Both the position numbers and the translations under genes were made by a program. A stretch of 64,000 bases of DNA, taken from assembly GCA_963753345.1 (NCBI GenBank), contig CAVWBU010000032.1, positions 1 to 64,000 on the forward strand. The letters run 5' to 3'. Origin of the DNA: an uncultured Fibrobacterota bacterium. Its GTDB lineage: Bacteria; Fibrobacterota; Chitinivibrionia; Chitinivibrionales; FEN-1185. The notes beneath the pieces are model-generated. The model saw only the letters and a list, made by a program, of their open reading frames with translations. It did no database searches and was not told where the DNA came from. Positions 21,582 through 58,627 of this stretch are shown here, piece by piece (the stretch's first letter is position 1; each line of letters starts with the position of its first letter).

Positions 21582-21750
21582 TTGGGCGTTACCCCCATAC
21601 AGGGTCGCATTGATGATGCGCCCCTGTATGGGGGTCGGTCTCCCTCCAGGCTCGGCTATTCGCCTCGTTGCCGGTCCGCCCTAGTTGCCTTCGGCAAGGG
21701 TCGGCCGGCAATGCGCTCCTGCGCACCTTCCGGTCCGCCTGGCGCTTGGC
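21582..21750 (-). repeat. structured intergenic module B (REP-like insert in terminal hairpin)
   Basis: reverse complement shares ccggcaacgaggcgaatagccgagcc..gggagaccgaccc..aacgcccaa with the other B copies. Confidence 0.85.
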
Positions 21751-21863
21751 ATCAGATTGATTCCATAAATGTCAAGTTTGGCTGCCGCAAAATCGGACAC
21801 GACATTCCGTGGGTTCATCCCGCCCTCGGCACCACGTTTCACACATGGTCTGACTGGATATGG

Positions 21864-22637
21864 TCAATTCCGGAAAACGCATCCTGTAGATTGCGTTTCG
21901 ATCACATTTCTGTCGTCGGCCCAATGTGCGGGATTGTTGCGGATATATCGCCGGATGGCGAATAATTCGCGGTTGTTGCGGATGATGTGGTCGTAAAAAC
22001 GGGGTTGCCAATCGAATCCGGGCAAGACCGTTTTCCGGATGCGTTTTTTCACCATGTTTTTATATTGGCCGATGATGGCACCCAAAACGCCGGGGTTCCA
22101 ATTTTCCGGTTTGCGTTTATTCGAATGATTTGGTGTTTTTCCATTTTCCGTATCATCCGAATTTTTCGTAGAGACGTCGCGGTGCGGCGTCTCATCCCCT
22201 TGTCCGGATGTCACCGCATTTTCCATTGGTTCCAATGAAACGTTGCGGTGCGGCATTTCCGACGAAACCGTATTATTCGTTTCATCCAATGAGACGCCGC
22301 ACCGCGGCGTCTCTACAAAATCCACCGGATTTACAAAATCAATTGGATCCACAAAATCCACCGGCATTGATTTGATCCGTATAATGGCGTGAAAATGGTT
22401 CGGCATGATAACGTATTCGTCGATTGAAACGTTCCGGCGGATTTCGGGTGTTGCCAGCCATTCCTCGTTTGCGATGATTCCGGCAGGTTTTAAAACAATG
22501 GAACCGTCAATTATGTCGGAAAGAAAACATTTGCGATTGTGCGTGCATATCGTCACGAAATACCACGCCGGTGATGAATAATCCCATTTCGGCAGACGCG
22601 CGGATTCAATTCGATATTTTGAATGGAAGAGGGACAT
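21864..22637 (-). mobile_element. REP-associated tyrosine (Y1/HUH) transposase, RAYT-like
   Basis: SARLPKWDYS...YFVTICT, MPNHFHAII (HUH), WQPRFYDHIIRN, YIRNNP; GTAG-type REP hairpins at 22168-22193, 22291-22316 and 22733-22762. Confidence 0.88.
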
Positions 22638-22784
22638 GGTGTAATCAGGTTGGTGATGTGATGTTTATTGTTGATCTATTGACGGATACGAATGTTCCCT
22701 GAAATCCGAACAGCCGGCGCGCCGGGGTTTGCTGCAGAGACGTTGCGGGAAGCGTCTCTGCAACAAATGCGGTGACAAAAGGGA

Positions 22785-25457
22785 TCAGTAATCGCGGATG
22801 CAGCGGACGCTGTGGACCTTCACCTTTTCCGATATGATACCTGTCAACGAGAACCGCTATCATCTGCCTAGGCTATTATATCCCCATCGGTATTTAGCAT
22901 TAGCATCTTCAGTTAGCATGTCCACCAAATTCCCCAAAGACCCATATCAAGGGCAAATAGACCCCTGACTATACCGTGCACTTCCGGGCAGATCCTGTAA
23001 ATCCTGATGAGTTCGTTGCGCCAGTATTGGGACTAGTTCCAATGTGTGAATCCAGATTCCTTAAGTGGTCCGCCGGCAGTATTCCAACCGCCAAGAAATG
23101 ATATCAGAGTGTTCCATTCAGAATCAGTCGGCACATGCCATCCCAGGGGAGCCAGTTTGCCAGTATTCATCAGCATACCAGTTGTAGAGTGCTCCATAGG
23201 GATTCTTATAGGTGACTGAATCATTGTTAAACCAGCAATATCCTGGAGTTGAAAATGTGGCCCATGTTGCACTATCAGCCCCATTCGGAATCCCCGTCCC
23301 GTCATTATATTTCGTCGTCTTCAAATTCTCCACCATCCACACCTGTGTCCCGATGGGAACCTCATGTGTAAATATTCCCGTCAGCATCCTGGATTACCCA
23401 CTTCGCATACAGAGTAACAGCAGCCGTTATCGGCGTTGAAAAACTGAATGCTTTTGTCAACAACGAATCCGAATACCACCCGGCAAAGACATAGCTCCTC
23501 TTGGTAGGGAGCCGTTGGCGTTACGGCAGCAGCTCCATAGTTTACGGATTGCGATGCCACTGCGCTTCCGCCATTGGAATTGAAGGTGACGGTGTATTGG
23601 ATAATGGTCCATTTTGCATACAACACAATGTTCACCGACCCCATGGCAAACGTTGCGCCCGGAATCCGATCGGTGCCTGTGCCCGCGGCATTGGTGTTCC
23701 ATCCTGCAAATGTGTAGCCGGTTCTCGCCAGGTTGCCTGTATTGTCAAGCACCGTAACGGTTGTGCCATTGGTGTATTTGTTGGGATCGGCCGGAACGGT
23801 TCCGCCCGTGCTTCCGTTGCCATCGTATATCACGGTGTAAACAGGCGTCCATTTTGCATAAAGGGTGATGGAGGAGGTTATTGGTGTCAGAAAATTGAAT
23901 TGCATCGTAAACGCCTGGTCGGAATACCATCCGGCAAAGATGAACCCGCTTTGCGTGGGAGGCGTAGGCGCAGTGGCTGTCGCGTTGTAGGCGACATTCT
24001 GGCTGTCGACCGCGCTGCCGCCATTGCTGTTGAATTTTACGGTGAAGACCGCGACTGTCCATTTCGCATAAAGCGTCACGTTGGCAGGTCCCATGTTGAA
24101 TGTCGCGCCACCCATAAACGAAAACCCGCTGCCGTCGGCCGCGGTGTTCCAGCCGGCAAACGTGTACCCGGTGCGGACGAGGTTGCCGGTGTTGGCCTTG
24201 ACAGTCACGAGATCAAGCTGCTGATACGCGTTGGCGTCGGTCGGCACGGTTCCGCCGGTGCTGCCGTTGCCGTTGTAGGCGACCGTATACGTCGGGTTCT
24301 GCGTCCACACCGCGTAGAGCGTCACATTCGCATTTCCCATGCTGAAAGTCGCCCCGCCCGCATACGACGTTCCGTTGCCGTCTGAAGCCGTGTTCCAGCC
24401 CGCAAACGTGTAGCCGGCCCGGACAAGGCTTCCTGTGTTTCCATTGACATTCACGACAGCGCCCTGCTGATATGCGTTGGCGTCGGCTGGAACGGTTCCC
24501 CCGGTGTTTGCATTCCCGTTATACACGACCGCGTAGGTGGGGTTCTGCGTCCAGACTGCGTAGAGTGTCACGTTTGCCGCGCCGATGTTGAACGCGGCAG
24601 CCCCGGCGTACGACGTTCCGCTGCCGTCCGCCGCAGTGTTCCATCCCGCAAACGTGTAGCCCGCTCTGACGAGATTGCCGGTGTTCCCCTGAACCGTCAC
24701 GCTTGCTCCCTGCTGATACGCATTGGCGTCTGTTGGAACGGTTCCGCCGGTGTTTCCGTTGCCGCTATATGAAACCGTGTACGTGGGGTTCTGCGTCCAG
24801 ACCGCATAGAGCGTGACATTTGCCGCGCTCATGTTGAAGGTCTCGCCGCCGGAGTAGGATGTTCCCTTGCCGTCGGCTGCGGTGTTCCAGCCGGCAAACG
24901 TGTACCCGGCGCGGGCAAGACCGCCGATGTTTGCCTTGACAGTTACGACCGATCCTTGTTGGTATGCAGTTGCGTCCGTCGGCACGGCACCGCCCGTATT
25001 GCCGTTTCCATCATACGTTACAGCGATAGGTCGGAGCAGGTTTTGCCAGGATATTGATGGTTGCCGTATCAGTGTAATGACGTCCCCCCTGTATAGCGGC
25101 GACAGCAGTGACCGTTTTGGTCCCGCCGGTTGCGAACGTGTCGGCAATCCAGTTGGTATCCGTCCACGATGTTGATTTTCCGAAGGTGACGGCCTTCTCC
25201 GTGTCACCGCCGGTGCCCGTAACGATCACCGTCACAGAGTCCATGTACTGCGAAAGGTATGCATTGATTCCGATGCGCACCGGTTTGTCAACGCTGTCCG
25301 AAACCGAGGTCGTGCTGCGCTGGTGCGCCGAATTCTCGAGCGTGATTGATACGGCGGCGTTTGCCGGGGTGAAGGGGTTGGGTGAGTTTGAACAGAAAAA
25401 GAGAAAGGGTATGAGGGAGCAGGAGAGTATTACGGCAAATGCTTTCTTTGTTGACAT
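22785..25457 (-). CDS. lipoprotein with 7 Listeria-Bacteroides (InlB B-type) repeats and C-terminal FISUMP domain; multiple frameshifts
   Basis: FLFFC lipobox; YxVxYxGNG..GYTFAGWNT..LYAVW repeats; IGTQVWMVENLKTTKY, YGALYNWYA, PLGWHVPTDSEW, terminal SVRCIRDY*. Confidence 0.75.
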
Positions 25458-25572
25458 GGCGCATCGTCTCCGAAAATTGTTGATGGAAGGGCCCGGAGCC
25501 GGGCGGGAATGGATGGAAAGAATATAATATTGGGGGTAAAAGCGCGCTTGTGACGGATGTCACAAAGGAAAA

Positions 25573-25602
25573 AAGGAGGGCTTTTTTTCAAAAGCCCTCC
25601 TT
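25573..25602 (-). terminator. intrinsic terminator
   Basis: aaggagggcttt/aaagccctcctt stem followed by T-run on the minus strand, downstream of the 25628 stop. Confidence 0.7.
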
Positions 25603-25627
25603 AAAGAATCGAGACTCATAAAATGGA

Positions 25628-29249: not shown

Positions 29250-29272
29250 CAAAGAAAAGAGGAAGTACTGTG

Positions 29273-36293: not shown

Positions 36294-36353
36294 TCTGCTG
36301 GCGCGCCAGGCAGTACCGGAGGGTGAGCCGCCGCAAAGTGGCGGGGCGCCCAA
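36294..36353 (+). repeat. internally deleted module B
   Basis: gcgccaggcagtaccggagggtgag joined directly to the ccgccgcaaagtggcggggcgcccaa end. Confidence 0.6.
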
Positions 36354-36577
36354 GACTAGACAGTTATATAAATATGCGCTTTTCCCCCTTTTCTTTAATA
36401 TATTAATGGCTGGAGGGGGGACTTTTCGAAACGGGCAAAGGCGCGCCCGACACCATTCTTTAATTTTTTCCCCCGCTTCAGTTCAATAGATCGACAGACC
36501 GTGCGCAGAGCTCGTACCGGGCGGGTCATTTTGAACTTGCAATTAAACGATTAATGAGGACGCAAGGAGGGGGAATC

Positions 36578-39361: not shown

Positions 39362-39374
39362 TCAAAGTTCGCTT

Positions 39375-39882: not shown

Positions 39883-39936
39883 TTCTTGCTATCTATGGGA
39901 AAATTATTATAACACAAAAAGGGGGGAGAGGCAAGC

Positions 39937-42736: not shown

Positions 42737-42756
42737 TAAGCGAGAATAGGATTTAT

Positions 42757-43290
42757 GGGGGGATGTTTCCCCCTCGCTGCGGCCTCCTCGGCCTTCGGCC
42801 TGCGGTGTCCTCCGCTACCCCCTCGTGGGTAGCCCCCAAGGGAGTTGATTTGCAAGAAAGAAACATCTGCTGCGGGGGCACCGAGAAAGAGAGTTGAATA
42901 GTTGAAAAGCCAAGAATCCAAGAGCAAAAAACGAAAAAAGAACCATCATTCTTGTTTTTTCAGCCACATAGTGGCGCGATATTCTTAGCCCGGGGCAACG
43001 CCCCGGGAATGTAAAGATAACAACGTCATTTCCCCTCTCCACTTGTGGAGAGGGGTGGCCGCGAAAGCGGCCGGGGTGAGGCGACGGTTCTGAGCATTCC
43101 GATTTGCGCAAGGAAGTAAATCGACTGAATAGAATTCTGTTGCCGCGCGCTAGGCAGGACCGGAGTGGTCCCGCCGTGGCGGGATTGCCGGCCGACCCCT
43201 CGCCGAAGGCGACTCGGGGCGGATCGGCAACGAGGCGAACAGCCGAGCCCGGAGGGAGGGCCGCCGCCGCGAAGCGGCGGGGCGCACAAG
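42757..43290 (+). repeat. composite element A (42757-42890) + extra hairpins + B (43141-43290)
   Basis: as above, with nested cccggggcaacgccccggg and cccctctcc hairpins. Confidence 0.85.
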
Positions 43291-43345
43291 TTCTTGCTAT
43301 TTAAGAATTGAAAAATATTATAACACAAAAAGGGGGAAGGCAAGC

Positions 43346-46138
43346 ATGATTCACAAAACAATTGTTTCAGCGGCGATAATTCTTGCTCTGGCGGCCTCAT
43401 TCTGCCGCGCAGAAACCTACGTCCCGGATCCTTCTATCCGGCTCAAGATCAACCTGGGCGCCACGCCATGGAAGTTCACGAAAGGCGACCCGATAAGCGC
43501 GCAAACCGTGGCCTACAGCGACGCGGCATGGCGAACCGTGGGAATTCCCTACACCTGGGACGATTCCTGCTCGTTTCTCAACATGGACGCTGGAGGCCCG
43601 GACGCCAACCTGAGCACCGTCGCCTGGTACCGGAAGCATTTTACGCTTGACAATTCGTATTCATCGCACAAGATCTTCGTCGAATTCGAGGGCGCGCATC
43701 AGGCCGCCGCCGTCTACATCAACGGCACCTTTATCAAAAACAACGACACCCTCAATCCGAATGCCACGCATGTCGTCGGCTTTATCCCTTTTATCGTGGA
43801 CCTCACGCCGTACGTCCAGTTCGGCGGCCCCGACAACGTTCTTGCGGTGAAGGTGAGCAATGCGGGCGGCGGCTTTTACCAGGACCCCGGTTTTGCCGAG
43901 GCCTACAAGTACGGCATGGGCGACGGCGGGTTGTTCAGGCCCGTGTGGATGCATGTGACGAACAAGGTGTATGTTCCCGTCAACGTATACTCGGTTGTCA
44001 ACAACTGGGGAACCTACGTGGGGATCGTCTCGGCCACCGACGCTTCGGCGACGCTCCGCATCCTCACGCACGTGCAGAACGAGAGCGGCGGCGCTCAAAC
44101 CGTCACCCTCACCACCAAGGTGGTCGATTCGGCAAACGTGGTCGTGCTCAGCATGGACGCGACCCAGGCCATTCCCGCCGACAGCAGCTTTGTATTCGAT
44201 CAGACCGGCGATGTCGCCAGCCCGCACCTGTGGTATCCGGCCAACAGCCCATGGGGCAAGCCGTACATGTACAAGGTATACCATATTGTCAAGCTCGGCG
44301 GCGCGACCGTCGACGTTTTCAGGAGTCCGCTGGGCATTCGCGTCATCACCTGGAACAGCGACTTCCCGATTATCAACGGGCATCCGCATTACCTGTGGGG
44401 CGGCGCGTCGCGGTACGATTATCCCGCACTGGGCACCGCCGTGCCCGAAGAAGTGCAATGGCGCGACGCCAAGCTCATGGCCGACTGCGGCGGCAACCTG
44501 TGGCGGCCCGGACACGCCACGGCCAGCCCGGAATTCACGGCCGCCTGCGACGCGTACGGCGTCATGATCGTTCAGCCGAGCGGCGACATCGAAGGAAATT
44601 TCCAGACCGTCTATATCGCCAGTCCCACCACCAAGGTGCCTCTCAAAAAGGAATTGCACAGGGACATGATAATCCGCGACCGGAACAATCCCTCGATTCT
44701 GGCCTGGGAAGTGAGCAACGGCCCCATCGACTTTGATCTTGAGAAATACATACGGATCAACATCGACAGCGTGTGGGACCCCGTTCATACCCGCGCGATG
44801 TCCGACCGTGGGTATTGGCCGGACATTCCGGCGTTTACTGCGGGTATTGCGAGCACCATTTCCTGCTCGGCCACGGGCTGCGAGATTCCGTTCCACCAGC
44901 AGTATCCCGCCATTCCCTCCTGGGGCGCCGAGTCGTGGAGCGGCAACAACAAGGGATTCAGGTTTGATTACGACAACGAGCTCACCATCGCGAGTCTCTA
45001 TATCCAGAACTGGAAGCTCAGCAAGAATGCAAAGTGCTTCGGCCTTGTCCAATGGTATATGGCCGAAACGCCCGGCGAAAGCGGCATCGGCAGATCGTTC
45101 GGGACCGCGATGATGGATTGGAACCGCATTCCCAAAATGATGTACAAGATTTATCAGGCATGCTGGACCTACTACGCGGTGAAACCGGTTGTAAACCTCG
45201 CCTACCACTGGAATCGCGGCGGGGCCGTGACGGTGAACGCGTTTTCCAACTGTCCGAGCGTGCGGCTCAGGATAAACGGCGCGGACCAGGGCACAAGGGT
45301 TCCCTACCCGGACACGGGCACCGGCACCGCGCTCATGCCCACCCAATGCCAGTGGAACGTTACCTTCGCGGCCGGAGTGCTCCGGGCGGAAGGACTTGAC
45401 GCAGGCGGGAACGTGGTGTGCACCGATTCGGAAATAACCGCCGGCAACGCGGACCACATCCAGCTCACCGTCCTGCCGCCCATCGTGAGGCCCGACGATG
45501 GCACGACGTTCCAGATCCAGGCCAACGGCACCGATGCCGCCTTGATTCTCGCCAAGATTGTTGACGCCCAGAACAATTGGATTCCCACGGCAAGCAACAA
45601 CGTCACGTTCGCGGTGAGCGGCCCCGGGTACTACTGCGGCGGCGCGGACAACAACACCTCGGGCGGCGGAGCATACCATCATGCGCCGTTCGACCCCGAG
45701 CTCACCGCCGAAGGCGGCATGTGCAAGATCGCGGTGCGGTCGACGTTTACGCCGGGAACGGTGGGCGTCACTGCCACGTCCGGCGGGCTTTCGGGCACTG
45801 CCTCGTTCACCACGGTTGCGATGCCGCCGATTCCGTCGGTGGGCGTGATAAGCCCGGTGCACCATCAGGAGGTCTATGCCGCCGCGACGGTGCAGATGCG
45901 GATGATCGGCCGCACCCTGCGGTATTTCCTCAATGTGCCCGCAACGGTGTCGTTCGACATTCTCGACGCAGGCGGCAGGGTGGTAAAACATGTTGATCAT
46001 TTCAAGCAGGTTGAAGGGTGGCATCCGCTGGTTCTTGGCGACGGATTGACGGGTGCGAACGCTAATGGCGTTTACTTTGTGCGCTGCAGCGTGGATCAGG
46101 GGGGCAGTTTTGTGAAGAGGGTAATTGTCATTAAGTAA
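43346..46138 (+). CDS. secreted GH2-family glycoside hydrolase, copy 3
   Basis: collinear with copies 1 and 2. Confidence 0.88.
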   Translation: MIHKTIVSAAIILALAASFCRAETYVPDPSIRLKINLGATPWKFTKGDPISAQTVAYSDAAWRTVGIPYTWDDSCSFLNMDAGGPDANLSTVAWYRKHFTLDNSYSSHKIFVEFEGAHQAAAVYINGTFIKNNDTLNPNATHVVGFIPFIVDLTPYVQFGGPDNVLAVKVSNAGGGFYQDPGFAEAYKYGMGDGGLFRPVWMHVTNKVYVPVNVYSVVNNWGTYVGIVSATDASATLRILTHVQNESGGAQTVTLTTKVVDSANVVVLSMDATQAIPADSSFVFDQTGDVASPHLWYPANSPWGKPYMYKVYHIVKLGGATVDVFRSPLGIRVITWNSDFPIINGHPHYLWGGASRYDYPALGTAVPEEVQWRDAKLMADCGGNLWRPGHATASPEFTAACDAYGVMIVQPSGDIEGNFQTVYIASPTTKVPLKKELHRDMIIRDRNNPSILAWEVSNGPIDFDLEKYIRINIDSVWDPVHTRAMSDRGYWPDIPAFTAGIASTISCSATGCEIPFHQQYPAIPSWGAESWSGNNKGFRFDYDNELTIASLYIQNWKLSKNAKCFGLVQWYMAETPGESGIGRSFGTAMMDWNRIPKMMYKIYQACWTYYAVKPVVNLAYHWNRGGAVTVNAFSNCPSVRLRINGADQGTRVPYPDTGTGTALMPTQCQWNVTFAAGVLRAEGLDAGGNVVCTDSEITAGNADHIQLTVLPPIVRPDDGTTFQIQANGTDAALILAKIVDAQNNWIPTASNNVTFAVSGPGYYCGGADNNTSGGGAYHHAPFDPELTAEGGMCKIAVRSTFTPGTVGVTATSGGLSGTASFTTVAMPPIPSVGVISPVHHQEVYAAATVQMRMIGRTLRYFLNVPATVSFDILDAGGRVVKHVDHFKQVEGWHPLVLGDGLTGANANGVYFVRCSVDQGGSFVKRVIVIK

Positions 46139-46157
46139 TTGACAAGAGCCTCTAGGA

Positions 46158-46610
46158 GGGGGAAGTCTCCCCCTCGCTTCAGACCGGCGCGCGATTCTTG
46201 AGTCCCTTGAGACCGTCAATCGCGCGCCGTTCTTTCGCTACCCCCTCCTGGGTGGCCGCCTTGACAAAGCAGATGCTGGAACATGTATTGCTGCGGCGGC
46301 ACCCACGAGCGATAGTTGAAAAGAAAATGCGTTGAAGAGTTGAAACGTTGAATAGTTGAACAATCAAAGAAGAAGCCATCACTGATTTATTGCGGATATC
46401 GAATGGCGCGGGACGAGGTAATTGACAGAATAGATCTCCTCTGCCGCGCGTTAGGGGCGACTGGAGGCCGCGCTGGAGCGCGGTGCTGCCTGACCACGGC
46501 CCACAGGGCCATCGTGGCAGGCAGCCCGAGGCCAAAGGCCGAGACCGGAAGGAGAACCGCCCGTACGTAAAGCCGCGGAATTCCGCGGCTTTACGTACGG
46601 GAACGCCCAG
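46158..46610 (+). repeat. composite element A (46158-46310) + B (46441-46610)
   Basis: gggggaagtctccccct...; ctgccgcgcgttagg...gggaacgccca. Confidence 0.85.
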
Positions 46611-46633
46611 ATTTCTTTCCAAAGGGAACTTTA

Positions 46634-48040
46634 TTATTTAGCAAGATCCTCAATCATACTCTTCGCCGCATTTCTCCCCGCGCCCATTGCGAGTATGACT
46701 GTTGCCGCTCCGGTCACAATGTCGCCGCCGGCGTACACAAACTTCTTTGATGTCCTGCCGTCGGCCTCGGTCGCGACAATGGTGCCGTGCTTGGTGACGG
46801 CGATGTCGGGCGTGGTTTCGCGGATGAGCGGATTGGTGCTGTTGCCGATCGCGACGATCACCACGTCGCAGGGGATGTCGAATTCGCTGCCCTTGAGCGG
46901 CACGGGCCTCTTGCGGCCCGATTCGTCGGGCGCGCCCAGCTCCATGTGCAGGCACCGCATGCCGGTGACGAAGCCCTTGTCGTCCGCGAGTATGGCAACG
47001 GGATTGGTGAGCAGGCGGAACACAATGCCCTCCTGCTTTGCGTGGTGCACCTCTGCGCTGCGTGCGGGCATTTCAGCCTCGGTGCGGCGGTATACTATGG
47101 TGGAGGTCTCTGCGCCCAGCCGCAGCGCGGTGCGCGCGGCGTCCATTGCAACGTTGCCGCCGCCAACGGTGATTACGCGCCTGCCGCGGATGATGGGCGT
47201 GTCCGCGCCCGGCTTGTACGCCTTCATGAGATTGCTGCGCGTGAGGTATTCGTTCGCCGTGTACACGCCGACGCTGTTTTCGCCCGGGACGCGCAGAAAC
47301 ACGGGCAGGCCAGCGCCCGCGCCGATGAATATCGCCGCGTATCCCTCTTCGGTAAGCAGGCCGTCTATGGTGGCGGTCCTGCCCACGATAAAATTGCGCT
47401 CCACGCACACGCCGAGCCGCTCCAGCCAGCCGATCTCCTTTTTGACAATGTCCTTGGGGAGCCGAAATTCCGGGATGCCGTAGGTGAGCACGCCTCCGGC
47501 CTCGTGGAACGCCTCGAACACGGTCACGTCGAATCCCTCTTTGACAAGTTCGCCGGCGGCGGTGAGGCCTGCCGGGCCCGAGCCCACCACGCCCGCCTTT
47601 TTCCCGTTTTTCGGCTTCACCGCGGGAACCGCGGAACCGCCATGCGCCATTTCCCAGTCGGCCGCGAAACGCTCGAGCCCGCCGATATTGATGGCATCGC
47701 CTTTCTTTCCGAGAATGCATTTCGCCTCGCACTGCGTTTCCTGCGGACACACCCGGCCGCATACCGCGGGCAGCGAGTTCGTCTCCCGTATCTTTTGGGC
47801 CGCCTTGGCGAATTTTCCCTCGGAAACCAGCTTCACGAACTGCGGGATCGCGACGCTCACCGGGCACCCTTCCACGCACAGCGGCTTTGTGCATTGGAGG
47901 CAGCGCTTCGCCTCGGCAATTGCCTCGGCCTCGGTGTAGCCGAGCGGAACTTCGTCGAAGTTCCGCGCCCGGACCTTCGGATCCTGTTCCCTCATGGGCA
48001 TGCGCCTGGCGCGCGCTGGTGTTGCGGGTTTTTGCGTCAT
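46634..48040 (-). CDS. nfnB: NfnB / GltD-like NADPH oxidoreductase
   Basis: EAKRCLQC..CVEGCPV, CGRVCPQETQCE, GSGPAGL, YGIPEFRLP, GGGNVAMD, GGDIVTGAATV. Confidence 0.88.
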   Translation of the reverse strand: MTQKPATPARARRMPMREQDPKVRARNFDEVPLGYTEAEAIAEAKRCLQCTKPLCVEGCPVSVAIPQFVKLVSEGKFAKAAQKIRETNSLPAVCGRVCPQETQCEAKCILGKKGDAINIGGLERFAADWEMAHGGSAVPAVKPKNGKKAGVVGSGPAGLTAAGELVKEGFDVTVFEAFHEAGGVLTYGIPEFRLPKDIVKKEIGWLERLGVCVERNFIVGRTATIDGLLTEEGYAAIFIGAGAGLPVFLRVPGENSVGVYTANEYLTRSNLMKAYKPGADTPIIRGRRVITVGGGNVAMDAARTALRLGAETSTIVYRRTEAEMPARSAEVHHAKQEGIVFRLLTNPVAILADDKGFVTGMRCLHMELGAPDESGRKRPVPLKGSEFDIPCDVVIVAIGNSTNPLIRETTPDIAVTKHGTIVATEADGRTSKKFVYAGGDIVTGAATVILAMGAGRNAAKSMIEDLAK

Positions 48041-48879
48041 GCCGGCCTGCCTGTCACGATGCAATGGTGCTTTTCGAGCGCGCTCTTTTCAAACGTGCGG
48101 TAGCCGCTTTGCCGCCGCATCATTTCGTCCCAGTCTATTTTGCTCGCGTCGAATTCCGGTCCGTCAACGCACGCGAATTTCGTCTCGTTGCCCACGGTCA
48201 CGCGGCACCCGCCGCACATGCCTGTGCCGTCGATCATGATGGGGTTGAGGGAGACCATTGTTTTTATTCCCGCGGTCACGGTGATGCCGGAGGTGACCTT
48301 CATCATCATGGCCGGCCCGATAATCACGCTGAAGTCGAATTTCGCGCCGCCATCGATGAGTTTCTTGGCGCTGTCTGCGGCAAATCCCTTTTCGCCGCGC
48401 GAGCCGTCGTCGGTGCATACGATGACGCGCTCAGAAACCTGCTTCATTTCATTCTCCAGTAAGAGCAAATTCGCGGCGCGGGCCGCCAATATTGTCGTGA
48501 TTTCGTTTCCGGCGTCTTTAAGGGCAGTAACAATCGGATACAACGGTGCTGCGCCGACCCCGCCGCCGATGCACAGGCATTTGCCGAAGTGCTCGATGCG
48601 CGTGGGCCTGCCGAGCGGCCCGGCAAGGTCGATAATGTTGTCGCCTTCGACAAGGATCGAAAGGATCGTGGTGGATTTTCCCGCGACCTGGAAAATAAGC
48701 TCGATCCAGCCTTCGGCCGCGTTCGCGTTTGCGATGGTGAGGGGGATGCGCTCGCCCTCGGTGGTGGCGCGCACGATCACGAACTGCCCGGCTTTTCGCA
48801 TCCTTGCAATGCGCGGCGCGTCGACCCGGTAGCGGTAGACAAGTTCGGAGAGCTGTTCTTTCTTGATGATTCTCTGCAT
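48037..48879 (-). CDS. nfnA: NfnA (FAD/NAD-binding, 2Fe-2S)
   Basis: AGQFVIVR..GERIPLTI, GPLG, GGGVG, SLNPIMIDGTGMCGGCRV..CVDGPEF; coupled to nfnB. Confidence 0.88.
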   Translation of the reverse strand: MQRIIKKEQLSELVYRYRVDAPRIARMRKAGQFVIVRATTEGERIPLTIANANAAEGWIELIFQVAGKSTTILSILVEGDNIIDLAGPLGRPTRIEHFGKCLCIGGGVGAAPLYPIVTALKDAGNEITTILAARAANLLLLENEMKQVSERVIVCTDDGSRGEKGFAADSAKKLIDGGAKFDFSVIIGPAMMMKVTSGITVTAGIKTMVSLNPIMIDGTGMCGGCRVTVGNETKFACVDGPEFDASKIDWDEMMRRQSGYRTFEKSALEKHHCIVTGRPA

Positions 48880-49036
48880 ATGTAGTAAGAGGGAAAATTA
48901 GTTCATGAGTGAAAATGGGTGGGAGGGAAGTTGGGGGAGATGTTGTCATTACAAGTCAAGAAGTTGGTCTTGGTGGGAGCACCGCTTCGCGTTTCCCCCT
49001 CGCGCCAGTTGTCTACACTCTATCAAATACAAAGAA

Positions 49037-49183
49037 TGGGCGTTCCCCTCGCCTTTGCTCGGGTCGGTCTCCCTCCGGGCTCGGCTATTCGCCTCGTTGC
49101 CGGACCGCCCCGATGGCCTTCGGCCGGGGTCGACCGGCAATTCGCTTTGACTCACCCTACGGTCCACCTAACGCGTGGGCAGA
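49037..49183 (-). repeat. module B (reverse orientation)
   Basis: reverse complement gcgttaggtggaccgtagggtgag...gggagaccgacccgag...gggaacgccc. Confidence 0.85.
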
Positions 49184-50820: not shown

Positions 50821-50962
50821 TCTGCCCAGCGCCAGGGCGGACGGCAGAGTGCGCTGGAGCGCAGGGCTGCCTGACCGCGCCGACAGGCATCGCGGCAGGC
50901 AGCACCGAGGCCTTGGCCGAGCTCGAACGGAGGCCCGCCGTCGCGAAGCGGCGGGGCGCCCA
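50821..50962 (+). repeat. module B variant
   Basis: gcgctggagcg..gctgcctgacc..gcaggcagc..ccgccgtcgcgaagcggcggggcgccca. Confidence 0.75.
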
Positions 50963-51005
50963 CGCTACTCTTATATTGTAAAGCACACTTTTATCAAAGG
51001 TCTCT

Positions 51006-52127
51006 TCACTCTAGCCCGGCAGGCTGCATCCTAACCGACGCAACAAGAAACGGCACGCAGAAAATAAAGTACGAAATATCGAATTTCGATTCGAAAAATC
51101 CCGTGTGCAACCCGCATTCGAGCCCGGCGAGCAGCGTTGACACGGCGACAATCGAGAACATGAGCACGCCGCACAACCGGAGGCACCCCTCGAAGGTCCT
51201 CACGAACAATCCGCCCGCAACAGAAATCGCAAGGAATGCCGCGGTAACGGGCATGGGCGAGAAGGCCGACTGGAGAACCAGCGGGTTCTTTTGCGTAAAG
51301 GCGTTCCATCCCCAGAAAAGAAGCGGAACAAAGGTGAGGCAGAACCCAACAGCCATTCCGCCCGCCACCTTTGCAAATGCGGAAACGTCCCTGCGCTTGA
51401 GCAGCCTGTAGGATAGAAAACAGGCCAGGGGCAGTGCCGCGACGGCGCGCGTCGAGATAAGAAGGCCTCCCGCCATGCCGATCCAGAATAGCCGTCTCCC
51501 TTGGGGCGCACTCTTTTCCAGCCAGAACAGGTACACCACCACAAGCGCCATGTTGGCAAAAATCGTGCTCCGAACAATGACTTCGTATGCGAGCGCCGGC
51601 GAGGTCACCAGAAGAACGGTTTGCACAAGCAATGTCCGCGAATCCGCCTGCCGCCGGGCAAATACCGCGAACAGCGCGGCGAACGCAGCGAGGGTAAGCA
51701 CCCCGATTTCTCTGATGAAATAAAACGGGAAGGCGATGACAAAGTAGAACGGGAACGGCCCGGGCTGGTTGGCCTGGTTCGATTGGGCGAGATAGGGGTA
51801 GGTGCCTGCCATAAGGTTGTCGAGAAACGCGTTGATCACGCTCCAGCGGTCGTTCATGATGGTGTCAACTTTGACAAAATGGAGCGCAATCAGAAAGAAG
51901 AGCGTGAATGCGGCGGAGCACACCACGGCATAGCGCCGTTTGAAAAAGCCGACATTCAGGCGGGCGGCAAACAGGGGAACAGCAATGCAGAAAAAGGCAT
52001 AGCCTGCGGCGAGCGCAAGTGCGGCACCTCCGCTTATCCGTGAGGCGTATTTTACAATAAAGAGAAGGTTGACGATGCAGAGAAGCGTCAGGGTGACCGT
52101 GTTTCCCGGGGAGATTGTCTTATCCAT
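51006..52127 (-). CDS. polytopic membrane protein (GT-C/GT87-like)
   Basis: many hydrophobic segments; DRW..GTYPY..PGPFP. Confidence 0.6.
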   Translation of the reverse strand: MDKTISPGNTVTLTLLCIVNLLFIVKYASRISGGAALALAAGYAFFCIAVPLFAARLNVGFFKRRYAVVCSAAFTLFFLIALHFVKVDTIMNDRWSVINAFLDNLMAGTYPYLAQSNQANQPGPFPFYFVIAFPFYFIREIGVLTLAAFAALFAVFARRQADSRTLLVQTVLLVTSPALAYEVIVRSTIFANMALVVVYLFWLEKSAPQGRRLFWIGMAGGLLISTRAVAALPLACFLSYRLLKRRDVSAFAKVAGGMAVGFCLTFVPLLFWGWNAFTQKNPLVLQSAFSPMPVTAAFLAISVAGGLFVRTFEGCLRLCGVLMFSIVAVSTLLAGLECGLHTGFFESKFDISYFIFCVPFLVASVRMQPAGLE

Positions 52128-52213
52128 TGGTGGATAAAATAAATTCGGTGCTTGTAGTTGCATTGGAAAAGAAGAGGCGGAAGGTCGTGCCTAAAAGAAA
52201 AAATAAGTTTAGT

Positions 52214-52608
52214 GGGGGAAGTATCCCCCTGCCTGCGGCCGCCTCCGGCGTCCTCCGGCACCCCCTCCTGGGTGCACCCCTGGAAAGGGTAGTTGCAAAA
52301 CCATACTCTGCTGCGGGGGCACCCATGGAGAGTGGTTGTCAGCTTGAGGAGTTGAGAAGAAAAAGCGTTGAACAAGTAGAAAATGCGAAGAACAGTCTGA
52401 GCGTTATCATTGCGAAGCGGATTCTGGCGGGCGAAGAAGTATAATTGACAGAATAAATATCTGTTTGCCGCGCGTTAGGTGGACTGGAGGCCGCGCTGGA
52501 GCGGAGTGCCGCCCGACACCCGGCCCGCAGGGCATAGGGCAGGCGGCAACGAGGCGAAGGCCGAGACCGGAAGGGAGACCGACCCTCGCGAAGCGAGGGG
52601 AACGCCCA
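52214..52608 (+). repeat. composite element A (52214-52335) + B (52466-52608)
   Basis: gggggaagtatccccct...; tgccgcgcgttaggtgg...gggaacgccca. Confidence 0.85.
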
Positions 52609-52667
52609 GCGTATCTTATGTTGTCAGGGATATTGAAACTTGTACTATTGTCCCGATCCCTGTGAAT

Positions 52668-52696: not shown

Positions 52697-52747
52697 ATTT
52701 ATATACTTTACAAATAGCACATTATCCTCTTATTAAAGGGGGATTCC

Positions 52748-53446
52748 ATGAAACGAACCGTTTTTATTATTCTTGCGATTGCCTCAACCTGCGCTTTCGG
52801 CCAGGCAAATTCTGAGCAGGTTGCCGTGGTGCGGACCATTCTCGACAGCGCCGGACTGCAGGGCGTCACCGTGGAGAGCGTGACCAAGGCCGATTCGCTC
52901 GGCAGGATCACCTCTCTCGACTTGACAAACAAGGAAATGGAGAAGGCCGGCGTCAAGGTGCTCCCGCCGTCCATCGGCACCCTTACATCCCTCACGACCC
53001 TGCTTCTCGGGCGCAACAGCATCACCGATGTCCCTCCGGAAATAGGCCGGCTCACGTCGCTTGTCAAACTGGACCTCCAATACAACCAGATCGGCGAACT
53101 GCCTTCCGAACTCGGCAGCTGCGTTGCCCTGCAGGAGCTGGACGTTCGCCAGAACCAGCTCTCAAAACTGCCGCGAGAGCTGTTTACGCTCAAGTCGCTC
53201 AGGGTCCTGCAATTGTGGGGCAACCGGTTCACCTCGCTGCCCGAGGAAATAACCAAGCTCACCTCGCTGCGGGAGCTGTACCTCATGAACAACAGGCTTT
53301 TCACCCTTCCCGACGGCATCGTGAAGATGAAATGGCTCACCTACGTTGATTTTCAGGACAACAAGATCTGCGCGCCGTCGGCGGAACTATCGGCCTGGCT
53401 CAAGAAATGGGACGACCGCTGGAAATCCAAGCAGAAATGCTGGTGA
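52748..53446 (+). CDS. secreted leucine-rich repeat protein
   Basis: signal peptide; 23-aa LPxxIGxLTSLxxLxLxxNxI repeats. Confidence 0.9.
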   Translation: MKRTVFIILAIASTCAFGQANSEQVAVVRTILDSAGLQGVTVESVTKADSLGRITSLDLTNKEMEKAGVKVLPPSIGTLTSLTTLLLGRNSITDVPPEIGRLTSLVKLDLQYNQIGELPSELGSCVALQELDVRQNQLSKLPRELFTLKSLRVLQLWGNRFTSLPEEITKLTSLRELYLMNNRLFTLPDGIVKMKWLTYVDFQDNKICAPSAELSAWLKKWDDRWKSKQKCW

Positions 53447-55515: not shown

Positions 55516-55551
55516 AGAACGGTTCCGTGCCGCCCTTCCACGCAGCCCGCC

Positions 55552-56530
55552 GTGTCCGCGCCGCCGGGCCGTGATGCCCTAGTCCATGCCATTCACAAAG
55601 GCGAATTCTGGAAACCCTGCCCCGGCACGACGCAGGGGTATTTGTGCTGCGGCTACCAGATCCTCACCCCGCTCACGGGCTGCGGCATGTACTGCAGGTA
55701 CTGCGTTTTGCAGGCGTATCTCGAAAACCAGGCGCAGGTCGTATTCGACAATTTTTCCGATCTGGAAAGCGGAGGTCCGCGGCAAGCTTGCCGTATGGAA
55801 GGGCGTGGTGCGGTTCGGCACCGGCGAATTCGGCGACAGCCTGTACCTCGAAGACAAACTCCGTCTGAGCGAAAAAATCGCGGCACTGCTTGATCCCTTT
55901 CCGAATGCGCTCGTTGAATTCAAGACAAAAAGCACAAACATAGGCAGCCTTGCGAAGATAAGGAACCCGCAAAAAGTCATGGTCGGGTTTTCCATGAACA
56001 CGCCGCGCATGATCTCATTGTTCGAGCACGGCACCGCGCTGCTCGAAGACCGGCTTGCGGCTGCGCAACGCTGTCTCGACATGGGCTTCTGGGTCGCGTT
56101 CCACTTCGACCCGATTTTGTGGTATCCGGAATGGAAACAGGAGTACCTCGATGTCGTTTCCCGCATACTCGGCGCCGTTTCCGATACGTCAAGGATCGCC
56201 TGGTGGAGCCTGGGCGGCTTTCGCTCATCGCCTGCGCTCAAGGCGCTGCTCAAGAAAACGAACGCGCACCTTCCGCTGTTCGCCATGGGCGAGCTTGTGC
56301 AGGGAGAGGACGGGAAAATCAGGTATTACCGGCCCATTCGGGTGGAATTCTATTCGGCGATACGGGAAGAAGTAGAAAGGCGAGATCCGGATATTCCGCT
56401 TTATTTGTGCATGGAGAGTCCGGAAGTATGGGAAGAAGCGGGGATGATGAAGAGAATTCCAAAAGGATTAGTGAGATATCTTGATGAGAGGGCGGAGAAT
56501 ATGTTGGGCATTGCAATAAGTAAAGATTAG
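55552..56530 (+). CDS. spore photoproduct lyase-like radical SAM; frameshift near 55770
   Basis: KPCPGT..CCGY..GCGMYCRYCVLQAY; GTGEFGDSL, EFKTKS, FHFDPI, YLCMES. Confidence 0.8.
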
Positions 56531-56536
56531 TTTGGT

Positions 56537-56886
56537 GGGGGAAGTATCCCCCTGCCTGCGGCCCTGCGGTCCTCCGGCACCCCCTTCCTGGGCGGCCCCC
56601 AAGGAAGTTGATTTGCGAGAAAGTTGCTTGGGTTGGGGGGCACCCACGGAGAGGTGTTGAAAAGTACAAAGAAGAAGCTTTGATCATTTTCTTGATGATT
56701 CAAGATGGCGGGAAAAATGATCTTGACCGAATAGATTTCTTCTGCCGCGCGTTAGGTGGACCGTAGGGTGAGCTAGAGCGAATTGTCACTTCGTTCCCCA
56801 AGGTATGGAAATAGCGCTTCGCGCTTCATTATTGTGTCTCTTGCCTTGTGCCGGCCGACGACCCTTGGAAGCACCCGGCGGGGTGA
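56537..56886 (+). repeat. composite element A (56537-56656) + disrupted B
   Basis: B start at 56742-56785; cgacgacccttggaagcaccc fragment at 56856-56886. Confidence 0.75.
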
Positions 56887-57005
56887 TGGAGAGTCCGGAG
56901 GTGTGGGGAGAAGCGGGGATGATGAGAAGAATTCCAAGAGGGTTGGTGAGATATCTGGATGAGAGGGCGGAGAAAATGTTGGGAATTCCAAAAAGTAAAT
57001 ATTGA
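56887..57005 (+). pseudogene. diverged duplicate of the last ~39 codons of the SPL-like gene
   Basis: MESPEVWGEAGMMRRIPRGLVRYLDERAEKMLGIPKSKY* vs MESPEVWEEAGMMKRIPKGLVRYLDERAENMLGIAISKD*. Confidence 0.9.
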
Positions 57006-57011
57006 TTTGGC

Positions 57012-57397
57012 GGGGGAGGTTTCCCCCTCACTCCGGCCCGGCACGCGCGACATTTTTTCCATGACTTCCCGCGCGCCGGTTCTCCGCTACCCCCTCCTGG
57101 GTGGCCCCCAAGGAAGTGGATTTGCAAGAAAGAACCGTCGGCTGCGGGGGCACCGAAAGAAATAGTTGAAGCGTTGAATGGTTGAAAAGCATAGACTGAT
57201 TCATGGCGTATGCGGATTGGCGCGGGAAGAAGCAATTGACTGATAAGATTTCTTCTGCCGCGCGTTAGGTGGACCGTAGGGTGAGCTAGAGCGAATTGCC
57301 GGCCGACCCGGCCGACAGGCATAGGGCGGACCGGCAACGAGGCGAACAGCCGAGCCCGAAGGGAGACCGGCCCGAGCGAAGCGAGGGAAACGCCCAA
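57012..57397 (+). repeat. composite element A (57012-57160) + B (57256-57397)
   Basis: complete copy. Confidence 0.85.
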
Positions 57398-57442
57398 ATC
57401 TTATATTCATATTAATTACCATCAACCATTTTTATAAAGGCT

Positions 57443-58418
57443 ATGAATACTACAAACCCTCTTGCCATTGGATCAATTGCTCTCGGCGAAATTCCCCGCG
57501 TGGTCGCGGTCATCGACGAATTTCTCGACATGCACCGCATCGCTGCGCTTGCAAAGACCGGCGCGGACATCCTGGAAATGCGGTTCGACCTGCTGGGCGA
57601 CGACATCCCGTCGCTATGTGTATATGTTGACAAAATCAAGAAGACCACAAATTTCCCCTGCATCGGCACCATCCGCGAGACGGACGGCAACCGGCACAAG
57701 CGGATGGACATGTTCAAGTCGGTGATCCCGTTCGTGGACGCAGTCGACATAGAGATCGACGCATCGATCGCGCAGCAGGTGATCGCTCATGCGGCGGGGA
57801 AAACCGTGATCGTGTCGGAGCACGATTTCGAGAAGACGCCCGACATCGCGCATCTGCACGCCATTGCCGACAGGGCGCACGAGCCTCGGCGCCCACATTG
57901 TAAAGATCGCGGCAATGGCGCACAGCCGTCAAGATGTGGCGCGGCTGCTCGCGTTCGCGTCCGAATGCGCATGGCCGGTGGTGGTGATCGCCATGGGCGA
58001 TTTCGGCACCATCTCGCGCGTCCTGGCGCCGGTGTTCGGGTCGCTGTTCACGTACGGGTTTTTAAGATCGGCGGTCGCGCCCGGCCAGATTCCGGTTGGT
58101 AAATTGGTCGAAGAGCTGCGATTATATTATCCTCATATCAATAGTAAATCTAATCAGTTTTCAAATTCTGGTGGGGGCACCTCCTTGGCATCGGTTTCCC
58201 CCGGGCTCCGGCTTCCTCGCCTTCGCTTGCGGTGTCCTGCGCCTATCGCCCTTCCAGTTGGGCCGGCGCAACCGTCCGCGGGGCGGCAACGCTTGCGCGC
58301 TCGCGCGGCGTCACCCGTTCACGCTTCGCCCCTGCGCAAGAAATGCGCCTTCGCGCAATGTAATCAGTGCATTCGTCACTCGCAAATGCAACCATCGGTC
58401 GTGACAACAGACGATTGA
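57443..58418 (+). CDS. aroD: type I 3-dehydroquinate dehydratase; frameshift near 57880, homology ends near 58135
   Basis: ADILEMRFD, GTIR, DAVDIE, IVSEHDFEKTP, IVKIA, IAMG..G.ISRV, APGQI. Confidence 0.85.
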
Positions 58419-58445
58419 CTTATCGAAGATCTAAATTGCCGTTTT

Positions 58446-58627
58446 CTGCGTTAGGCAGGACTGGAAGTCCCGCTATAGCGGGATGCCGCCTGACCACGGC
58501 CCGCAGGGCCATCGTGGCAGGCGGCCCGAGGCCGAAGGCCGACGACCCTTGGAAGCACCCGAAGGGGTGGACCGGAAGGAGGGCCGACCCGACCCCGAGC
58601 TGTGTCGAGGGGGAGGGGAACGCCCAA
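58446..58627 (+). repeat. module B (preceded by an A-like variant at ~58170-58260)
   Basis: gcgttaggcagg...gccgcctgaccacggcccgcagggccatcgtggcaggcggc...gggaacgcccaa. Confidence 0.8.

Follow-up and report, generated by a model that had tools for sequence, protein, structure and literature searches.

Module B, a repeat that recurs through a 64-kb window of bacterial DNA (the whole stretch of 64,000 nucleotides analysed here), is on balance probably one family of interspersed, structured, non-coding elements that recently were, or still are, non-autonomously mobile. Its behaviour is that of a structured repeat that moves, rather than of a switch for genes. The family is confined to the Chitinivibrionales (Fibrobacterota), and in this genus it is amplified to roughly 300 copies. 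Its reading as a mobile repeat follows from those roughly 300 filled gaps, and from copies that come and go between relatives.

The unit and its copies

The first-pass annotation of the window had counted about 11 copies. A covariance model built in this analysis from Module B copies (R1), together with motif matches and repeat families, arrives at the same number: nine full copies and two damaged ones. These are only a sample, of course, of the ~300 in the whole genome. The full copies are 143-188 nt long (the unit is elsewhere given as 135-190 nt), GC-rich and non-coding. R1 matches all nine, and the internally deleted copy as well.

21580-21751, minus strand: full copy, long terminal hairpin (R1 100 bits, E 1.1e-20)
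36297-36355, plus strand: internally deleted copy (R1 34.8 bits, E 6.8e-6)
39665-39710, plus strand: conserved 5' module, TTGGCG ... TTGACnGAA.AG (repeat families D17 and D18, motif matches, logo positions -45..-1)
39711-39883, plus strand: full copy with optional arm at 39808-39837 (R1 81.8 bits)
43095-43140, 46396-46441, 52421-52465, 56697-56742 and 57210-57255, plus strand: further 5' modules (evidence as for 39665-39710)
43141-43291, plus strand: full copy, intermediate P1 type, GCGCU/GGCGC (R1 113.5 bits)
46442-46612, plus strand: full copy, long terminal hairpin (R1 134 bits)
49034-49180, minus strand: full copy between divergent genes, directed towards gene 48037-48879 (minus strand; Pfam) (R1 97.7 bits)
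50823-50965, plus strand: full copy, CC/GG P1 type (R1 111.4 bits)
52466-52611, plus strand: full copy (R1 91.6 bits)
56743-56885, plus strand: broken copy (5' motif, repeat family D18 and arm; no R1 match)
57256-57399, plus strand: full copy (R1 99.1 bits)
58442-58629, plus strand: full copy with arm at 58540-58569 (R1 100.3 bits)

The unit has three parts. It begins with a conserved 5' module, which slightly more than half of the copies have; continues with an eight-helix core, closed by a 5-bp helix (P1) and carrying near-invariant purine-rich junctions; and ends in a T-rich trailer. In a genome-wide logo, the 3' boundary of the element is sharp and the 5' boundary is diffuse. The conserved ends first described are recovered, with the 5' motif giving seven matches at two or fewer mismatches where 1.08 are expected (none of 100 shuffles reaches seven; six of the seven are at copies). 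Taken by itself, the 3' motif is weak: it matches seven times where 3.42 are expected, 4 of 100 shuffles attain that number, and six of its seven matches are at copies. The optional 30-nt arm, said to occur in three copies, indeed occurs three times in the window against none expected.

The internally deleted copy retains P1, P2, the 5' junction and the terminal hairpin, and a direct repeat of the GGAGGG type lies at its break. The broken copy at 56743 has an intact 5' end and first hairpin (to ~56800; repeat family D18 holds ~58 nt of this 5' core), followed by unrelated sequence and then by the detached arm at 56856-56885.

The TTGACWGAATAG motif lies ~20 nt upstream of six window copies, and genome-wide TTGAC falls within the -30..-21 bin in 144 of 252 copies. 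This stretch had been called a leader. Its conservation stands, but the motif travels with the element whatever gene follows, and is no gene's leader. A consensus scan raises no canonical sigma-70 flag in the 5' module. At the other end, the trailer (+5..+22) is 49% T and 21% A, and contains TTTT in 111 of 255 copies against AAAA in 19; tested as an intrinsic terminator, it starts 4-6 nt after P1, and the consensus scan flags no copy's 3' end as a terminator.

Across the genome, ~280-330 full copies are found (277 to 328 with both ends, depending on the rule used), about one per 15 kb, and by our estimate they make up roughly 1% of the genomic DNA. A search with the core pattern gives 293 matches in the genome, against four for the reversed control, and each of 150 scored candidates matches R1 at E <=2.4e-17. 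The host is an uncultured wetland bacterium.

The fold and its strand

The fold comprises 44 pairs in eight helices, with strongly conserved junctions. Selection on structure had been claimed for it at the outset, with covariation as the evidence to seek, and every set of rows delivers both-sided changes. Among 25 copies, 89.4% of cells pair, against 39-51% with partners slid, and 18 of the 44 pairs change on both sides. With relatives included (35 distinct rows), pairing reaches 91.2% and both-sided changes are seen in 34 of the 44 pairs, in an alignment fitted to the model. Rows from the order's other families (23 distinct ones) give 89.1% against 35-50% slid, with both-sided changes in 41 of 44 pairs, and their junction sequences are unchanged. 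The alignments show, to this extent, a fold conserved across order-level divergence within the Chitinivibrionales.

Within the genome, however, much of the "compensation" consists of a few alternative helix modules recombined between copies; P1, for example, comes as two linked types, UU/AA in 146 of 277 copies and CC/GG in 85. Thus, the early claim of compensatory change holds in that pairing is kept, but independent covariation comes mainly from copies in the other families of the order.

Which molecule folds is a more subtle matter. An RNA, or at least single-strand, form of Module B is likely, given that the purine-rich junctions, the 5' module and the T-rich trailer all lie on one strand. 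The sense fold is the more stable one in 222 of 255 copies, and single helix mismatches are purine-purine in 108 cases against pyrimidine-pyrimidine in eight. On the sense strand, however, G-U mismatches are no more numerous than A-C ones (21 against 36), nor is there a G-U excess on either strand, so an RNA-specific constraint is not supported. The element had first been proposed to be either a non-coding RNA or a mobile element folding as single-stranded DNA; its multiple copies and selected structure agree with that proposal, in which either RNA or single-stranded DNA may be the folded form.

The lack of a G-U excess on either strand would also suit a DNA-level architectural repeat of the BIME type, whose duplex or cruciform would bind host proteins such as gyrase or nucleoid proteins and whose pairing would be DNA palindromy. 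So would the extragenic location, the enrichment in convergent gaps, and the GCGAAGC mini-hairpin that the terminal hairpin often contains, a mini-hairpin unusually stable in DNA. Such a repeat is nevertheless improbable here, as eight helices with conserved purine-rich unpaired junctions exceed the needs of a DNA palindrome, and both the mismatches and the trailer are strongly strand-asymmetric.

It is rather unlikely, but conceivable, that the core represents a novel structured-RNA class, spread or retained by virtue of its own fold. The order-wide invariant junctions would then be an active or protein-binding core. Such an RNA might recruit a host enzyme that copies or integrates it, or the unit might be a self-contained promoter-RNA-terminator cassette, amplified much as Alu was from 7SL RNA. 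Were this so, hundreds of gene boundaries would have been rewired in the genus, with operons split and new transcript ends.

Placement between genes

Copies lie between genes, most commonly in convergent gaps, and their orientation to neighbours is not fixed. By a crude gene caller made here (2730 genes, 72% coverage), copies occupy 70 of 226 convergent gaps, 108 of 849 co-directional gaps and 29 of 293 divergent ones. A called gene is overlapped by 26 of 300 copies. For the others, where a downstream neighbour lies within 150 nt, 127 face a convergent gene, at a median of 26 nt from its stop, and 90 precede a co-oriented gene, at a median of 88 nt from its start. The 5' motif is not enriched before co-oriented genes (40 of 95 cases) relative to convergent ones (36 of 106; Fisher p 0.25).

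The window illustrates both arrangements. The 3' ends of four copies lie close to the stop of a convergent gene: 26 nt past that of an oxidoreductase gene (20408-21553; Pfam) for the copy at 21580-21751, 21 nt from that of gene 46634-48064 (minus strand) for 46442-46612, 40 nt from that of gene 51006-52163 (minus strand) for 50823-50965, and 14 nt from that of gene 58644-59354 (minus strand) for 58442-58629. Conversely, GH2 paralogues begin 53 nt downstream of the copy at 39711-39883 (gene 39937-42306; Pfam) and 54 nt downstream of that at 43141-43291 (gene 43346-46138), a leucine-rich-repeat gene (52748-53446; Pfam) begins 136 nt downstream of 52466-52611, and a dehydroquinase-like gene (57443-58102) begins 43 nt downstream of 57256-57399.

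No linked gene emerges. Similarity clustering of 382 flanking genes gives clusters of at most eight, with no linked ORF overlapping or adjoining the copies, in agreement with the original statement that no ORF is conserved. Housekeeping genes flank the copies in low-copy genomes. Integron attC sites were rejected as an identity for the element: most contigs have copies in both orientations, flanked by ordinary genes, and the copies form no co-oriented cassette arrays.

These placements bear directly on the view that Module B is a cis-regulatory leader, a riboswitch or attenuator, of a very large regulon. The 90 co-oriented copies are what such a leader would give, and the combination of variable helices and conserved junctions is reminiscent of an aptamer. 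But roughly every second copy is directed towards the 3' end of a convergent gene, and neighbouring genes are unrelated to one another; copies come and go at orthologous sites; and a canonical promoter-like site (TTGCTA-16-TATTAT, 43294-43321) stands between the copy at 43141-43291 and its GH2 gene. A leader is therefore very improbable, and is largely refuted by the orientation counts (127 convergent against 90 co-oriented, from crude gene calls). "Mobile promoters" (Promoter reuse in prokaryotes, PMC3575422) likewise place the same upstream block before unrelated genes; the Module B block differs in travelling with a structured core and in being as frequent without a following gene, and its promoter activity is only putative.

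Turnover, and the search for a mobiliser

Between related genomes, copies are gained, lost, inverted and internally deleted. The comparison of empty sites that had been suggested turns up all of these states at the same sites. Upstream of the dehydroquinase-like gene, loci L053 and L058 carry a copy, L054 has a rearranged variant, L057 an inverted copy, and L055 no copy. In G003, a congener that is 99% complete and has no Module B matches at all, a ~45-nt spacer separates the gene pair at this site; in G000, the pair is separated by 912 nt of modules, and both genes are intact. The insert must therefore let the downstream gene be expressed, or supply that expression itself. At 58442, the alignment with G001 shows an internally deleted copy in that genome. 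At 50823, G001, the closest relative, has no copy, and between G000 and G001 the spacers show no alignment whatever, so the difference may equally be a loss or a gain. Beyond these, one site is filled in the low-copy genome G033 and empty in its congener G143. No pair of empty and filled sites is clean enough to set the ends of the element at base resolution.

Sites that stay filled also change. In all three same-site pairs from G000 and G001, identity is 64-75% for the element and 82-93% for the flanking genes; the two copies differ in their helix modules; and the nearest paralogues of the three G000 copies, within G000, are 85-94% identical to them. Same-site copies that are more diverged than their genes, and closer to paralogues, indicate that copies overwrite one another, presumably by ectopic gene conversion or replacement. 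No two copies with unrelated flanks exceed 97% identity (the median nearest neighbour is at 90%), and thus there is no sign of a current burst.

Turnover also weighs on the possibility that Module B is a multi-copy gene for a small RNA, or transcript "punctuation", with a host function, its amplification in the genus being secondary. Here, the unit would be transcribed from the 5' module, fold, end at the T-rich trailer, and act in trans or as a signal for the processing, stability or termination of neighbouring transcripts. The complex fold and invariant junctions are kept in families with only 1-18 copies, the 5' module and trailer are both strand-specific, and the 912-nt insert left both genes intact. 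Against this, single copies do not keep their sites, even in genomes with few of them (G033 and G143), a congener lives without the family, many copies are deleted or broken, and the promoter-like and terminator-like parts both fail the canonical scan. This reading is possible, but we find it doubtful.

The favoured reading, a non-autonomous mobile element, would have propagation depend on the folded "sense" strand: preferably an RNA, made from the element's own 5' module or by read-through, alternatively single-stranded DNA. A factor supplied in trans, unlinked to the copies, would recognise the fold. For the host, the copies would act as bulky, hairpin-rich punctuation at gene ends, not as sensors for particular genes.

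A partner protein family had been expected to co-occur with the motif, and the genomes searched yield no Y1, RVT_1 or TnpB partner. The Y1 transposase (PF01797) has no match in G000 (94% complete) or G001 (73% complete), and is found in many genomes without Module B. Reverse transcriptase (RVT_1) has none in G000, G003 and G005, and the TnpB zinc ribbon (PF07282) none in five of five genomes. The single IS110-type gene of G000 lies ~2.8 kb from the nearest copy, and IS110 is absent from G004, a genome with many copies. Nor does the element match a known RNA family, just as first stated: Rfam 15 gives no match at the gathering threshold across the window or on 13 loci, and at E up to 10 only noise (351 nt; 13 loci including distant copies).

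These searches make it hardly credible that copies are relic guide-RNA scaffolds, of the omega-RNA or bridge-RNA type, left by RNA-guided transposons. The element is, of course, multi-copy and structured, with a sharp 3' and a diffuse 5' boundary, and HEARO elements behave similarly. HEARO and omega-RNAs have a complex conserved fold, many copies, often no adjacent ORF, and one sharp boundary, all of which Module B shares. Yet no TnpB- or TnpA-type partner (five and two genomes) and no IscB-type partner was found for Module B, IS110 is missing from G004 despite its many copies, no ORF overlaps or adjoins the copies, no core was seen directly after a nuclease or recombinase gene in the loci examined, and Rfam is silent. 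An IS200/IS605 omega-RNA or PATE was rejected on PF01797 (none in G000) and PF07282 (none in five of five genomes).

Correia (CREE) and ERIC elements are ~100-170 nt long, number hundreds of copies and lie close to genes, with possible promoter or terminator effects. Module B is like them in size, copy number, gene-adjacent location and possible effects on neighbours. They, however, have long terminal inverted repeats and target duplications. Module B has no terminal inverted repeats, as first noted, beyond the complementary 5 bp of P1, and no duplication: flanks of one copy score a mean of 4.86 against 4.81 for flanks of different copies (p 0.19). MITEs of this and similar kinds were rejected on these two results.

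REP, BIME and REPIN repeats of proteobacteria resemble Module B in their hundreds of extragenic copies, kept pairing, lack of coding capacity, and within-genome populations that persist and turn over; their enrichment at gene 3' ends is also matched by its occupancy of convergent over divergent gaps (crude gene calls). But a REP is a single short imperfect palindrome, and a REPIN two inverted REPs, where Module B has 44 pairs in eight helices. REPs also go with the RAYT (Y1) transposase, for which G000 and G001 have no PF01797 match. The pneumococcal BOX element is modular (boxA-boxB(n)-boxC), intergenic, without a known dedicated transposase, and presumed to be transcribed and folded. Module B shares these traits, including optional or repeated sub-modules and a transcribed, folded form that is likewise presumed. 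It is presumably unrelated to BOX in sequence, and is set apart, by description, in having a fold far more elaborate and conserved over an order.

Bacterial interspersed repeats are usually simple hairpins. Module B pairs a very high copy number with a fold as elaborate as that of a riboswitch or small ribozyme, throughout an order, and it displays concerted evolution of non-coding repeats in measurable form. Should it work as RNA, it would be an RNA class absent from the catalogues, and its hundreds of natural variants would lend themselves to structural study. If it acts as folded DNA, it implies an undescribed mobilisation system. Either way, gene boundaries have been reshaped in an abundant group of wetland polysaccharide degraders.

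Copies, anatomy and fold

The first-pass annotation described a multi-copy folded element, Module B, with about 11 copies in the window. The element is real, as counts of its end motifs against shuffled sequence and matches to a covariance model both show. The model, R1, was built from alignment A2, which holds 25 copies from G000, the genome to which the window belongs, with the structure drawn by hand. Here, R1 recovers nine full copies and an internally deleted one; the "broken" copy at 56743 proves to be a 5' part and a detached arm only. The 5' end motif, with up to two mismatches allowed, occurs 7 times in the window where 1.08 occurrences are expected, a count that none of 100 shuffles attains. 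Taken by itself, the 3' motif is weak (7 occurrences against 3.42 expected, with 4 of 100 shuffles reaching 7); six of these seven lie at copies. The leader motif that had been reported, TTGACWGAATAG, stands upstream of six copies, and the 30-nt optional arm said to occur in three copies was found at three places.

Occurrences of the optional arm in the window
39808-39837, optional arm
56856-56885, optional arm
58540-58569, optional arm

The core is 127-200 nt long, with modes near 134 and 150-165, and the window copies are 66-78% G+C, against 55.9% for the genome. A helix of 5 bp, P1, encloses the whole element. The second helix from the 5' end, P2 (3 bp), is separated by a conserved junction, GGAC.GGAGG, from the hairpin P3, and P4 is a long hairpin in three parts with a 3-nt bulge. 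The P5 hairpin opens with a C-G pair followed by two G-A mismatches, and 3' of it lies a mini-hairpin, P6. After P6 comes a conserved GGAG..CCGACC stretch that includes the 3' strand of P2, then the terminal hairpin P7, whose length is highly variable, and then the 3' strand of P1. Conservation ends sharply downstream, after CGCCCA. Upstream, it extends genome-wide to about -45, with TTGAC found in the -30 to -21 bin of 144 of 252 copies.

Among the 25 seed copies, 89.4% of alignment cells are paired; sliding the partners by 1-3 columns lowers this to 39-51%. Both sides have changed in 18 of 44 pairs. In other families (23 distinct rows) the corresponding figures are 89.1% against 35-50%, with both sides changed in 41 of 44 pairs; having been fitted to the model, these alignments are biased towards the structure, and the slid controls come from the same alignments. 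Between families the helices are rewritten, while the junction sequences are nearly unchanged. The fold is, to judge from these alignments, old. The compensatory stem changes that had been claimed are seen as independent changes mainly in copies of the other families; within G000 the variation is less independent, much of it coming from a few recombined modules. There, P1 is of the UU/AA type in 146 of 277 copies and of the CC/GG type in 85, and P3 and P4 each come as a few alternative modules, in many combinations that are not random.

The annotation had recognised no known family, and the window has no Rfam match at gathering thresholds. Searches at E up to 10 gave only noise, for one copy and for 13 loci that included distant relatives. 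A possible likeness of the element's 5' end to the glmS ribozyme was rejected, as these searches brought up no glmS match. Locus L038 of genome G022 has two matches to the Acido-Lenti-1 RNA motif that stay below threshold (1631-1684 and 2047-2093, minus strand; 23.0 and 25.5 bits, for a gathering score of 37), one of them directly upstream of an element copy.

Abundance, strand and genomic surroundings

The G000 assembly (4.52 Mb, 55 contigs, of which the window is C32; 94% complete) holds 293 matches to the core pattern, and a reversed control 4. Copies with both ends number 277-328, depending on the rule used in the scripts, and R1 matches all 150 of the candidates scored in the genome search. 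At about 150 nt per copy, the element would make up an estimated 1% or so of the genome. Five other genomes of the genus were searched, and in four of them every candidate that was scored matched (76 of 76). The exception is G003, 99% complete, which gave zero matches in two R1 searches and, in a DNA search, genes only. In a sample of the phylum, 24 of 151 genomes have matches, nearly all in the same order, with 1-18 matches per genome outside the genus; all such wider searches used R1, built from one genome's copies, so distant copies are probably undercounted. Four of the 24 matching genomes, from one family of another order, give weak hits. Across the genome collection, just three assemblies contain an exact 3' pattern, and their titles give them as Fibrobacterota, Fibrobacteres or Chitinivibrionales MAGs. 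No match came from plasmids, phages or viral contigs.

The annotation had offered two readings, a non-coding RNA and an element folded as single-stranded DNA. Of the single mismatches inside helices, identified with wobble pairs forbidden, 108 are purine-purine and 8 pyrimidine-pyrimidine on the strand designated sense. In 222 of 255 copies the antisense fold is the less stable of the two, the mean difference being 3.7 kcal/mol. The 5' module, a conserved block just upstream of the core, is strand-specific, as is a T-rich trailer: positions +5 to +22 are 49% T against 21% A, declining to 30% against 27% by +31 to +60, and TTTT is found in 111 of 255 trailers, AAAA in 19. These four features favour a single-stranded form of the sense strand and, with the trailer taken in, favour RNA as that form. 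Other results speak against this. G-U mismatches do not outnumber A-C ones in unbiased folds (21 to 36); in the model-fitted alignment they stand at 34 to 15, and as a test for RNA the comparison is not decisive. Scans for canonical promoter and terminator consensus called neither a promoter in the 5' module nor a terminator at the 3' end. No strand bias appeared: the G-rich strand carries 128 of 227 copies (p 0.06), and 116 of the 227 agree with the local gene majority.

By our own crude gene caller (2730 genes, 72% coverage), 26 of 300 copies overlap a called gene. For the others, the downstream neighbour within 150 nt is convergent for 127 copies, at a median of 26 nt from its stop, and co-oriented for 90, at a median of 88 nt to its start. 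In a census of the 207 copies that have a neighbour within 600 nt on each side, copies occupy 70 of 226 convergent gaps, 108 of 849 co-directional gaps and 29 of 293 divergent gaps; in the 108 co-directional gaps, 70 copies follow the gene orientation and 38 oppose it. The 5' motif does not favour co-oriented genes: it is found before 40 of 95 of these and before 36 of 106 convergent ones (p 0.25). Window neighbours, by Pfam, are GH2 hydrolases, a leucine-rich-repeat protein, a dehydroquinase-like protein, oxidoreductases and a chemoreceptor-type protein. No recurrent neighbouring protein emerged from 382 flanking genes genome-wide, whose similarity clusters hold at most 8; four cluster representatives were ordinary by eye, and in low-copy genomes the flanks are ordinary housekeeping genes. 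A canonical promoter-like site, TTGCTA-16-TATTAT, lies at 43294-43321, between a copy and its GH2 gene, so that copy is upstream of the site and may not be within the 5' UTR. The element is not a leader or switch for adjacent genes.

A second repeated module, Module A, accompanies some copies. It begins directly after stop codons with a GGGGG-loop-CCCCC hairpin, which leads into a tract of 8-nt periodic GTTGAANN repeats. Where present, it is always upstream of Module B in the same orientation.

Occurrences of Module A in the window
39372-39664, Module A
42750-43094, Module A
46150-46395, Module A
52205-52420, Module A
56530-56696, Module A
57000-57209, Module A

Genome-wide, by a strict motif with 70 copies, it accompanies 36 of 277 Module B copies in that arrangement and none in any other. 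The stretch between Module A and the 5' module holds a recurrent short palindromic motif, GTCATTGCGAGC..GCGAAGCAATC, at 39603-39640 in the window and at about 548-575 in L053, a locus of a relative. Three GH2-family paralogues stand in tandem at 36554-46138 (68-79% DNA identity), each with an element copy upstream. The middle ORF ends at 42306 and similarity to the other two continues to about 42690, which suggests a frameshift or premature stop. Elsewhere, the gene at 23381-25207 (minus strand) carries four or five tandem 246-nt repeats of 60-75% identity, a repeated protein domain.

Turnover and concerted evolution

Comparison with empty sites had been proposed as a check, and the state of a site does differ between relatives, both before the dehydroquinase-like gene and at other sites.

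State of the site before the dehydroquinase-like gene in relatives (locus, protein identity of the gene to that in the window, state)
L053, 90%, filled, same orientation
L058, 68%, filled, same orientation
L054, 82%, rearranged variant
L057, 81%, inverted copy, further away
L055, 83%, empty

The two genes at this site are about 45 nt apart in G003 and 912 nt apart in G000, where the gap is full of modules. Around the genes at 46634-48879, G005 retains one of the two window copies, G002 has one deleted copy and another in opposite orientation, and G004 and G003 have none. In G001, the closest relative, whose genes are 75-93% identical by DNA search, the 50823 gap holds no copy; its spacers in the two genomes do not align, so loss and gain are indistinguishable there. 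At the 58442 site, the G001 copy carries a deletion between two CCGACCC repeats; in the window, the deleted copy at 36297 has its break at a repeat of GGAGGG type. In a low-copy genus, one copy of G033 is missing from G143. The syntenic site there (L135, about 1330-1480) has another sequence, which includes a long inverted repeat rich in G+C and is possibly a further repeat family.

In 3 of 3 same-site pairs from G000 and G001, the element copies are 64%, 68% and 75% identical, while the flanking genes are 82-93% identical; of the short spacers at the element 3' end, two of three are 86% and 95% identical. The differences are of whole helix modules, in one case of the P1 type. The paralogues of these same copies within G000 reach 86%, 85% and 94%. 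Genome-wide, the nearest paralogue with unrelated flanks has a median identity of 90%, and none exceeds 97%. Shared flanks mark all 11 near-identical pairs as segmental or assembly duplicates. Identical copies with identical flanking genes recur across G000 contigs (C4, C5 and C16; C38, C42 and C19), which points to segmental duplications or redundant assembly contigs. Ectopic gene conversion among hundreds of copies accounts for the mosaicism and also for the lack of identical copies; the alternative is repeated replacement at hot spots.

A solo 3' end lies some 25-35 nt downstream of about 10-14 of 255 copies, and upstream of none of the 255. The pattern is consistent with insertion into older copies or recombination with them. 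The optional arm, of which the genome has 57 copies, shows much stronger conservation than other parts of the element (41 of the 57 are identical over 26 nt). Its position within the element is not fixed, although it always follows a CCGAC-like motif, and it may be a tiny insertion spreading among copies.

Mobility and standing of the family

The search for a mobilising agent covered several gene families. No Y1 transposase was found in G000 or G001, and many matches were found in genomes without the element; reverse transcriptase is absent from G000, G003 and G005, and the TnpB zinc ribbon from all five genomes searched for it. IS110-type genes are present in G000, G002 and G005. IS110 was rejected as mobiliser, since G000 has a single such gene, about 2.8 kb from the nearest copy and not adjacent to it, and copy-rich G004 has none. 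Metagenome assemblies, of course, often drop repeated mobile genes, which makes all these absences weak evidence. No target-site duplication was found. TTGAC as a duplicated target was likewise set aside, as downstream TTGAC is barely enriched and is unlinked to upstream TTGAC.

In the literature, the titles and abstract openings covered describe no element of this kind from Chitinivibrionales or Fibrobacterota; it is uncatalogued in Rfam and, to that extent, in the literature searched. The description that fits the element best is a family of structured intergenic repeats of Chitinivibrionales that are mobile or were so until recently. Its fold is unusually elaborate and anciently conserved, and its copies evolve in concert within genomes.
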